Shown: piece by piece, positions 669-4,067 of the stretch
How the letters are laid out: each line of letters begins with the position of its first letter
How positions within the stretch are numbered: position 1 is the first letter of the stretch
DNA from: a virus
Lineage: Duplodnaviria; Heunggongvirae; Uroviricota; Caudoviricetes
Length of the DNA: 9,254 bases
Strand: one strand, 5' to 3'
IMG/VR virus record: IMGVR_UViG_2778261163_000005
Made by a program: the position numbers and the translations under genes
The notes under the pieces: model-generated
Database searches by the model: none
Told to the model about the DNA's origin: nothing
Seen by the model: the letters and a program-made list of their open reading frames with translations, nothing else

Positions 669-3600
669 ATGGGTAAAGGCAGCAGTAAGGGGCATACCCC
701 GCGCGAAGCGAAGGACAACCTGAAGTCCACGCAGTTGCTGAGTGTGATTGATGCCATCAGTGAAGGGCCGATTGAAGGTCCGGTGGATGGATTAAAAAGC
801 GTGCTGCTGAACAGTACGCCGGTGCTGGACAGTGATGGGAATACCAACATCGCCGGTGTCACGGTGGTGTTCCGGGCTGGTGAGCAGGAGCAGACTCCGC
901 CGGAGGGATTTGAATCCTCCGGCTCCGAGACGGTGTTGGGTACGGAAGTGAAATACGACACGCCGATCACCCGCGCCATCACGTCGGCAAACATCGACCG
1001 ACTGCGCTTTACCTTCGGTGTGCAGGCACTGGTGGAAACCACCTCAAAGGGGGACCGGAATCCGTCGGAAGTTCGCCTGCTGGTTCAGATACAGCGTAAT
1101 GGTGGCTGGGTGACGGAAAAAGACATCACCATTAAGGGCAAAACCACCTCGCAGTATCTGGCCTCGGTGGTGGTGGATAACCTGCCGCCGCGCCCGTTTA
1201 ATATCCGGATGCGCAGAATGACGCCGGACAGCACCACAGACCAGCTGCAGAACAAAACGCTCTGGTCGTCATACACCGAAATCATCGATGTGAAACAGTG
1301 CTACCCGAACACGGCACTGGTCGGCGTGCAGGTGGACTCGGAACAGTTCGGCAGCCAGCAGGTGAGCCGTAATTATCATCTTCGCGGGCGCATTCTGCAG
1401 GTGCCGTCGAACTATAACCCGCAGACGCGGCAATACAGCGGTATCTGGGACGGAACGTTTAAGCCAGCATACAGCAACAACATGGCCTGGTGTCTGTGGG
1501 ATATGCTGACCCATCCGCGCTACGGCATGGGGAAGCGTCTCGGTGCGGCGGATGTGGACAAATGGGCGCTGTATGTCATCGGCCAGAATTGCGACCAGTC
1601 GGTGCCGGATGGCTTTGGTGGCACGGAGCCGCGCATCACCTGTAATGCATACCTGACCACACAGCGCAAGGCGTGGGATGTGCTCAGTGATTTCTGCTCG
1701 GCGATGCGCTGTATGCCGGTATGGAACGGGCAGACGCTGACGTTCGTGCAGGACCGACCGTCCGATAAGGTGTGGACCTATAACCGCAGTAATGTGGTGA
1801 TGCCGGATGATGGCGCGCCGTTCCGCTACAGCTTCAGCGCCCTGAAGGACCGCCATAATGCCGTTGAGGTGAACTGGATTGACCCGGATAACGGCTGGGA
1901 GACGGCGACAGAGCTTGTGGAGGACACGCAGGCCATTGCCCGTTACGGTCGTAACGTCACGAAAATGGATGCTTTTGGCTGTACCAGCCGGGGGCAGGCA
2001 CACCGCGCCGGGCTGTGGCTGATTAAAACGGAGCTGCTGGAAACGCAGACCGTGGACTTCAGCGTGGGTGCAGAAGGGCTTCGCCATGTACCGGGCGATG
2101 TCATTGAAATCTGTGATGATGACTATGCCGGTATCAGCACCGGTGGTCGCGTGCTGGCGGTGAACAGCCAGACCCGGACGCTGACGCTCGACCGTGAAAT
2201 CACGCTGCCATCCTCTGGTACCACGCTGATAAGCCTGGTTGACGGAAGTGGTAATCCGGTCAGCGTGGAGGTTCAGTCCGTCACCGACGGCGTGAAGGTA
2301 AAAGTGAGCAGTGTTCCTGACGGCGTTGCAGAATACAGCGTATGGGGGCTGAAGCTGCCGACGCTGCGCCAGCGCCTGTTCCGCTGCGTGAGTATCCGTG
2401 AGAACGATGACGGCACGTATGCCATCACTGCCGTGCAGCATGTACCGGAAAAAGAAGCCATCGTGGATAACGGGGCGCACTTTGACGGCGACCAGAGCGG
2501 CACGGTGAATGGTGTCACGCCGCCAGCGGTGCAGCACCTGACCGCCGAAGTCACCGCAGACAGCGGGGAATATCAGGTGCTGGCGCGCTGGGACACGCCG
2601 AAGGTGGTGAAGGGCGTGAGCTTCCTGCTCCGTCTGACCGTAATAGCGGATGACGGCAGTGAGCGGCTGGTCAGCACGGCCCGGACGACGGAAACAACAT
2701 ACCGCTTCAGGCAGCTGGCGCTGGGGAACTACAGGCTGACAGTCCGGGCAGTAAATGCCTGGGGGCAGCAGGGAGACCCGGCGTCGGTATCGTTCCGGAT
2801 TGCCGCACCGGCAGCGCCGTCACAGATTGAGCTGACGCCGGGCTATTTTCAGATAACCGCCACGCCGCATCTTGCGGTTTATGACCCGACGGTGCAGTTT
2901 GAGTTCTGGTTCTCGGAAAAGCGGATTACCGATATCAGGCAGGTTGAAACCACAGCACGCTATCTTGGCATGGCGCTGTACTGGATAGCCGCCAGTATCA
3001 ATATCAAACCGGGCCATGATTATTATTTTTACATCCGCAGTGTGAACACCGTTGGCAAATCGGCATTCGTGGAGGCCGTCGGTCGGGCGAGCGATGATGC
3101 GGAAGGTTACCTGGATTTTTTCAAAGGCAAGATAACCGAATCCCATCTCGGTAAAGAGCTGCTGGAAAAAGTTGATCTGACGGAGGATAACGCCAGCAGA
3201 CTGGAGGAGTTTTCGAAAGAGTGGAAGGACGCTAACGATAAATGGAATGCGATGTGGGGCGTCAAAATTGAGCAGACCAAAGACGGCAAACATTATGTCG
3301 CGGGTATTGGCCTCAGCATGGAGGACACGGAGGAAGGCAAGCTGAGCCAGTTTCTGGTTGCCGCTAACCGTATCGCGTTTATTGACCCGGCAAACGGGAA
3401 TGAAACGCCGATGTTTGTGGCGCAGGGCAACCAGATATTCATGAATGACGTGTTCCTGAAACGCCTGACGGCTCCCACCATTACCAGCGGTGGAAATCCG
3501 CCGGCATTTTCCCTGACACCAGACGGAAAGCTGACCGCTAAAAATGCGGATATCAGCGGTAATGTGAATGCAAATTCAGGGACGCTCAACAATGTCACGA

Positions 3601-4067
3601 TTAATGAAAACTGTCAGATTAAGGGGAAACTGTCAGCCAATCAGATTGAAGGCGATATTGTCAAAACGGTCAGCAAGTCTTTCCCCCGCACGAACAGTTA
3701 TGCCAGTGGCACCATCACGGTAAGAATCAGTGATGATCAGAAATTTGACCGGCAGGTCATGATACCGCCAGTGTTATTCCGCGGTGGTAAGCATGAGAAT
3801 TTCAACAGTAATAACCAACAGTCATACTGGTATTCAACCTGCCGGTTAAGAGTGACCCGCAATGGTCAGGAGATTTTTAATCAGTCCACGACGGATGCTC
3901 AGGGCGTATTTTCCTCAGTTATAGATATGCCTGCCGGACAGGGGACGCTGACACTGACATTCACCGTATCTTCATCAGGAGCGAATAACTGGACACCAAC
4001 AACCAGTATCAGCGATCTGCTGGTTGTGGTGATGAAAAAATCCACAGCAGGTATCAGTATCAGCTGA
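669..4067 (+). CDS. J: Tip attachment / host-specificity protein J (central tail fibre), 1132 aa
   Basis: The ORF is 1132 codons, the same length I recall for lambda gpJ. The N-terminus ([54 protein letters not shown]) and most of the body match my recollection of lambda J. GGAG at 657-660 is a plausible ribosome-binding site. Gene order I-J-lom agrees. Confidence 0.95.

Follow-up and report, generated by a model that had tools for sequence, protein, structure and literature searches.

The 3' end of gene J in the stretch of DNA analysed here (the window, 9,254 nt in length) is very probably a receptor-binding-domain cassette acquired by natural exchange, of the A8/phi330 type, which docks on the porin OmpC and is carried on a lambda-like J. 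That lambdoid phages swap the C-terminus of J as a module is textbook knowledge, and others have already worked out the function and structure of the exact domain present in the window: it has served as a building block in engineering (gpJ A8), its structure has been determined together with the receptor, and its link to OmpC is known from a natural Stx phage.

In the window, a lambdoid prophage is represented by its right-hand tail region, in which the genes follow the lambda order and much DNA is shared with lambda. J lies after I and before lom, stf and tfa, which is also its position in lambda, and the following features could be recognised:

6-608: 3' part of gene I (tail assembly), from the ORF list and Pfam
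669-4067, plus strand: J, the tail tip attachment or central tail fibre protein, 1132 aa and intact, from the ORF list, translation, NCBIfam and Pfam
4085-4110, plus strand: terminator-like hairpin and T-run just 3' of J, from a pattern scan and RNA folding (-17.2 kcal/mol, z = -3.9)
4134-4733, plus strand: lom (Ail/Lom), from Pfam Ail_Lom (E 4.5e-120)
4792-7821: stf, side tail fibre, 1009 aa
7821-8405: tfa, tail fibre assembly
Distal end of the window's gene list, minus strand: sitD

The same arrangement was found at 98.6% identity in E. coli E275a, where it extends from the tape measure gene through J-lom-stf-tfaR to sitDCBA and uspF-ompN-nifJ. The 1009-aa side tail fibre of the prophage may add or mask receptor requirements of its own.

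The J protein belongs to the NCBIfam family NF049904 (lambda_TipJ), which matches it with 2346.9 bits against a cutoff of 1950 and covers residues 1-1132. Its Pfam domains, all of them above cutoff and in the order expected of J, are PF24801, PF13550, PF24421, PF24489, PF09327 and PF12421, under the names FNIII-A_GpJ, Phage-tail_3, Ig_J, Ig_J_second, Phage_Tail_Tip and Ig_GpJ_C; the Ig_GpJ_C domain occupies residues 1008-1132 (E 5e-36). Within J, the following parts were distinguished, the two hairpins being placed by a 90-residue numbering offset between phi330 and the window:

669-3548, plus strand: lambda-like J body with hub domains, FNIII domains, helical shaft and beta-prism fibre, from identity to lambda (domain names from PMC11101478)
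3546-3625, plus strand: conserved 5' junction (ADISG...NENC), from a three-way DNA alignment, the ends of blastn matches and the protein alignment
3626-4028, plus strand: variable core of the receptor-binding domain, Ig-like, of the OmpC-binding A8/phi330 type, without nucleotide match to lambda or the 434 type, from PDB identity and Pfam
3795-3824, plus strand: hairpin at residues 1043-1052 (E1043-S1052), an insertion relative to lambda, corresponding to phi330 E953-S962
3981-3998, plus strand: hairpin ANNWTP at residues 1105-1110, corresponding to phi330 A1015-P1020
4029-4067, plus strand: conserved 3' junction (V.KK...GISI and the stop codon), from the resumption of blastn matches at 4029 and invariant K/K/G/I/S columns

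By aligning the window J with lambda J, a sharp change in similarity was revealed near the C-terminus. Residues 1 to ~963 are approximately 97% identical, whereas the last 173 residues are 47% identical. When the DNA is compared with lambda J in steps of 90 nt, identity is 88-98% as far as 3548, then 74% at 3549-3638 and 44-61% thereafter. The first clustered differences appear at ~3577-3590 in a three-way alignment of lambda, the window and phi330, just after the common stretch AAAAATGCGGATATCAG, and the blastn matches to lambda J stop at 3625. Thus, the earlier note was right that the C-terminus departs from the lambda sequence, and the peptide it quoted reads correctly; the high full-domain identity to lambda J that would have overturned this impression was not found in the pairwise alignment. 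Over residues ~985-1132, the window does not carry the lambda LamB-binding tip allele, with 47% identity and no nucleotide match past 3625.

The change in similarity is accompanied by a change in base composition. Three segments of J could be distinguished, with a GC content of 59.5% at 669-2828, 52.1% at 2829-3548 and 46.3% at 3549-4064, and a corresponding GC3 of 72%, 63% and 52.3%; positions 669-3548 taken as a whole have a GC of 57.7% and a GC3 of 69.9%. The 516-nt stretch with the minimum GC of the 9,254-nt window begins at 3560, and just 1.2% of such stretches are equally low. The low-GC tract extends beyond the J stop, to ~4200. A GC break at 3550-4067 had been noticed from the letters of the sequence, and the computed profile confirmed the discontinuity (46.3% vs. 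57.7%) and its place, but reduced its size to ~11 points instead of 20. The sample lines of 38-43% GC reported for this region did not hold up: individual 60-nt lines within 3549-4064 range from 38% to 55%, and the adjoining upstream segment (2829-3548) is already at ~52%.

It may be argued that a composition break of this kind belongs to the 3' third of all J genes, arising from coding or structural constraint or from an old module boundary, and is silent on any recent swap, a reading that we consider evenly balanced. Lambda J has a matching first GC step at ~2830 (52.9% vs. 59.2%), and because its GC also falls from this point, base composition by itself says little in favour of a foreign origin. 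Moreover, in six other carriers (phi330, SPF_0923, 434, phage 21, mEp460_ev081 and PhiR26_1), tips of 47-48% GC sit on bodies of 57-58.5%. The proposal that the GC drop is unique to the window allele was rejected, since the other non-lambda tip alleles have 47-48% GC and only that of lambda is higher. On the other hand, a generic break is compatible with a swap, for which the identity breakpoints and not GC provide the basis, and the lambda tip has 54.6% GC against about 46.3-46.6% here, so that the final step, an extra 8 points relative to the lambda tip, is allele-specific, while the first step is common with lambda. As a sign of a swapped cassette, the GC break is therefore real, but smaller than first stated and not specific to this swap. 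The lower GC of the cassette (46% vs. 58% in the body) probably reflects a separate module history; it is common to most J tip alleles and does not mark this particular event.

The receptor assignment is provided by an identical domain of known use. Residues 901-1132 of the window J agree with the chain 'A8 gpJ 713' of PDB 9wca/9wcb at 231 of 232 positions, and residues 966-1132 are 100% identical; the sole difference, N965S, is located in the lambda-like part upstream of the cassette. Three further chains of PDB 9wcb bear the name 'Outer membrane porin C', the complex with OmpC being known here from the chain names alone, and a literature search for a paper describing 9wca/9wcb found none. 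The name 'A8 gpJ 713' follows that of the lambda-LamB construct 'gpJ713', which contains residues 713 to the end (PMC11101478). In the study of Brödel et al. 2024 (Nature, PMC11338833), the C-terminal parts of natural gpJ variants were fused onto Ur-lambda gpJ, with OmpC replacing LamB as the receptor. The gpJ chimera candidates were screened on a lamB-deleted strain, and the tests used an MG1655 lacking both lamB and ompC that received ompC variants on a plasmid. A8 delivered to 90% of the population with the OmpC of MG1655 as well as that of EDL933, and A8, 1A2 or both worked on 21 of 23 OmpC variants (PMC11338833). The published GpJ A8 DNA aligns to positions 3495-4067 of the window with 543 of 573 columns identical, as read from a machine-read supplement with dropped letters.

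A natural counterpart is provided by the Stx2a phage vB_EcoS_phi330 (XYY30176, PV189401), whose J tip is 98.3% identical to that of the window (170/173 residues). In a panel of 54 outer-membrane knockouts, phi330 failed to lyse the Keio ompC deletion strain, and Plac-ompC restored infection (PMC12502783). [quoted passage not shown] With 100% identity to the 9wca/9wcb chain over residues 966-1132 and 98.3% identity to phi330, the window tip can be assigned by sequence to the A8/phi330 type.

Three independent lines, namely a solved structure, an engineered chimera and the natural phage phi330, point to OmpC. The suggestion in the earlier note that the tip targets an outer-membrane protein other than LamB is thus borne out by its identity to A8, which was deposited together with OmpC, and its 98.3% identity to the OmpC-dependent phi330. 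Judging from these identities, the prophage's own virions would be expected to use OmpC as well. That the tip still binds LamB, as a merely diverged LamB-binding allele like those of lambda and phage 21, is highly improbable: the closest distinct allele is indeed that of phage 21, whose native receptor is LamB (PMC11336670) and in which both hairpins modelled on OmpC are kept, but the identical A8 domain works in lamB-deleted cells, needs OmpC and was deposited with it, and phi330, even with LamB available, does not plate on cells deleted for ompC.

The phage 21 allele deserves attention in its own right. The tip of phage 21 J (OL657228) shares 83% of its residues (144/173) and 76% of its nucleotides with that of the window, including both hairpins (residues 1043-1052 and ANNWTP) and the last 30 residues. 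The 29 substitutions among the 173 positions are clustered at 980-985, 1002-1009, 1019-1032, 1059-1079 and 1091-1103; near-identity to the phage 21 tip was not found, and the two represent different alleles of a related clade. Phage 21 reportedly uses LamB in its native state, acquires OmpC use after a single J mutation, and acquires OmpF use with more (PMC11336670); the main texts of the studies do not state which single J mutation confers OmpC use. Since one mutation in J is enough, specificity in this clade is labile, and 80-85% identity is insufficient to assign a receptor in the J tip family. The assignment of the window is not weakened by this, because it is based on identity and not on similarity. 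Furthermore, the presence of both hairpins in a LamB-using phage implies that these loops do not discriminate between OmpC and LamB, or that the model is incomplete. Given this lability, dual use of LamB and OmpC by the window allele is a formal possibility, but an unlikely one, since phi330 loses plating completely when ompC is deleted. The DNA identity between the window and phage 21 tips is patchy (0.53 to 0.90 per 60 nt), which hints at exchange below the domain level. A tentative and rather doubtful extension of these observations is that the window (OmpC) and phage 21 (LamB) alleles form a single tip clade straddling a natural receptor switch, in which specificity would reside, if the modelling is right, among the 29 differing residues outside the two hairpins, and stretches smaller than the domain would recombine. 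If true, receptor switching in lambdoid phages would proceed at a finer grain than that of a whole-domain cassette.

The case for exchange is based on comparisons in which the tip and its surroundings have different partners. Phages mEp460_ev081 and PhiR26_1 are 93-94% identical to the window over 1-3625 and 96.5-96.8% identical over 4029-7508, and no DNA match between them and the window was detected by blastn between 3625 and 4029, where protein alignment shows that their tip domain is of the phage 434 type. Because these carriers match both flanks and not the middle, the predicted exchangeable core lies at ~3626-4028 (codons ~986-1120), between two conserved junctions. Conversely, phi330 is 91.7% identical to the window in DNA over 3276-5219 and only 77% identical over 667-3122 (blastn). 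The occurrence of one tip on two bodies and of two tips on one body indicates recombinational exchange and not divergence in place. The sharp identity breakpoints, and the fact that the cassette recurs on another J body, thus agree with the earlier proposal of a swapped specificity cassette, which probably moves by homologous recombination in the two conserved junctions, ADISG...NENC (5') and V.KK...GISI (3'). Although receptor-binding tips are under strong host-driven selection and a few J mutations can shift the receptor in lambda and phage 21, it is scarcely credible that the C-terminus diverged in place by fast point mutation under diversifying selection, without recombination and with the GC drop as a by-product, because similarity to lambda at the DNA level drops from 92-98% to 44-54% over one or two 90-nt bins, identity returns abruptly at 4029 in phages with another allele, the cassette is 98% identical on a J body that is only 77% identical, and an 18-point GC3 shift would not be expected from point mutation under protein-level selection.

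The neighbouring gene lom also differs from that of lambda. The Lom protein is 47% identical to lambda Lom, and no nucleotide match to lambda was detected by blastn over 3626-4605 except for 59 nt at 4273-4331; compared with lambda, the replacement thus takes in most of lom as well. The lom DNA is ~96.5% identical to that of the 434-type phages, from 4029 on. The idea that tip and lom form one travelling unit was examined and rejected, as mEp460_ev081 and PhiR26_1 pair the lom of the window with a 434-type tip; since 434-type phages carry this lom, it is uncoupled from the J tip.

With regard to the action of the cassette, the lambda system provides a template. In lambda, the LamB trimer receives four bottom loops from the three C-terminal Ig-like domains; on binding, the domains move apart at their bases, and the change travels via the beta-prism fibre and helical shaft until the tail tip opens (PMC11101478). 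In the window's phage, three copies of the tip may form the end of the central tail fibre, with bottom loops that would dock on trimeric OmpC and not on LamB, and docking would then trigger tip opening and DNA ejection as in lambda. By analogy, the trigger mechanism may be equal to that of lambda, as would be expected from the 93-98% identity to lambda of all parts above the cassette and from the placement of both tips in one Pfam family.

The cassette is widely distributed. In a collection of 5,426 complete E. coli genomes, the 519-nt segment was found at an identity of at least 95% in 1,492 records, roughly a quarter, where it is annotated as gpJ, and full-length matches at any identity were present in 2,415 genomes of the same set. 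The tip also occurs at 97.7-100% identity in 44 records of a phage collection, and these carriers include many long-tailed Stx1a and Stx2a phages, 2H10, Turner, Chlobot and several PhiR phages. For annotation, the gain is that the central fibre can be labelled OmpC-specific and not LamB-specific. Such a label predicts the host range, superinfection and resistance routes (ompC and not lamB/malT mutations), and the strains that the prophage could lysogenise.

In comparison with known systems, lambda J (PDB 8xcj, 8iyk) has the same length of 1132 aa and the same domain order as the window J, with a tip in the same Ig_GpJ_C family and 90% amino acid identity overall. Two indels separate the tips, a loop at ~1009 that is 4 aa shorter in the window and a hairpin at 1043-1052 that is 5 aa longer, and the receptor of lambda J is LamB, whereas that of the window-type tip is OmpC. 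Phage 434 J, the classical OmpC-binding allele (PMC11101478, PMC12502783), which is also carried by mEp460_ev081 and PhiR26_1, has its tip at the same position and between the same junctions, but this tip is 5 aa longer and only ~48-50% identical to that of the window. Thus, the window does not carry a 434-type tip, and OmpC binding in the two alleles is not the same solution by close descent. The J of phi330 has nearly the same tip and the same lom allele downstream, on a body that is different (77% DNA identity) in a protein that is shorter as annotated (1042 aa). The closest likeness is to the A8 chimera, which combines a lambda-type body with identical tip residues 966-1132 and uses OmpC. 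A8 is an engineered fusion on Ur-lambda gpJ with its junction between codons 965 and 974, hence S965 where the window has N965, while the window J is a natural prophage gene, with a body in which ~3% of the residues are unlike lambda.

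Within the C-terminal receptor-binding domain (tip) of the tail tip protein J, DNA identity to the J gene of phage 21 (OL657228), the closest distinct tip allele, was found to alternate along successive 60-nt segments between approximately 85-90% and 53-65%. This alternation suggests mosaicism at a sub-domain scale in the J tip. The sub-blocks noted in the comparison with phage 21 are:

3666-3785: first sub-block of the J tip
3846-3905: second sub-block of the J tip

A single difference, G18903A, has been reported between the Meyer-lab stock of phage 21 and its GenBank record. 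By our own calculation, position 18903 of that record corresponds to position 547 of L006 (phage 21) and to codon 1043 of J in the window (nt 3795), and the altered base is the first of the GAA codon aligned with E1043. Judged from this alignment, the hairpin that modelling places in the OmpC barrel would begin with K rather than E.

Downstream of J, lom (4134-4733) is set off as its own unit by two flanking hairpins:

4085-4110: terminator-like hairpin with a T-run directly 3' of J (fold -17.2 kcal/mol, z = -3.9)
4760-4790: terminator-like hairpin with a T-run directly 3' of lom

Its product shares only 47% protein identity with lambda Lom. The same lom allele, at a DNA identity of about 92-97%, is common to phi330, which shares the window's tip, and to mEp460_ev081 and PhiR26_1, which carry a 434-type tip, and the lom and J tip alleles assort independently.

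Two further features lie downstream of lom:

4792-7821: side tail fibre gene (1009 aa)
8511-9254, minus strand: sitD of the sitABCD iron/manganese transporter, adjoining the prophage right end (considered together with L008 14616-18065)

In E. coli E275a tfaR is followed by sitDCBA and then by uspF-ompN-nifJ, a Rac-like locus on the chromosome. A record named 'Salmonella phage SPF_0923' is 95.6% identical across the whole window and also contains sitD and sitC; thus, the sit operon may be prophage cargo, or else some host flank may be part of that record.

Compared with lambda stf, the side tail fibre gene is a mosaic whose separate pieces match at 73-94%, and it has an internal direct repeat (6193-6279 and 6325-6411). 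Inside J, GC content steps down at approximately 2830, close to codon 720: it is about 60% before this point and about 52% once the second Ig/FNIII domain is reached. This step is an older compositional boundary within J, unconnected with the tip swap, and lambda J shows the same one.
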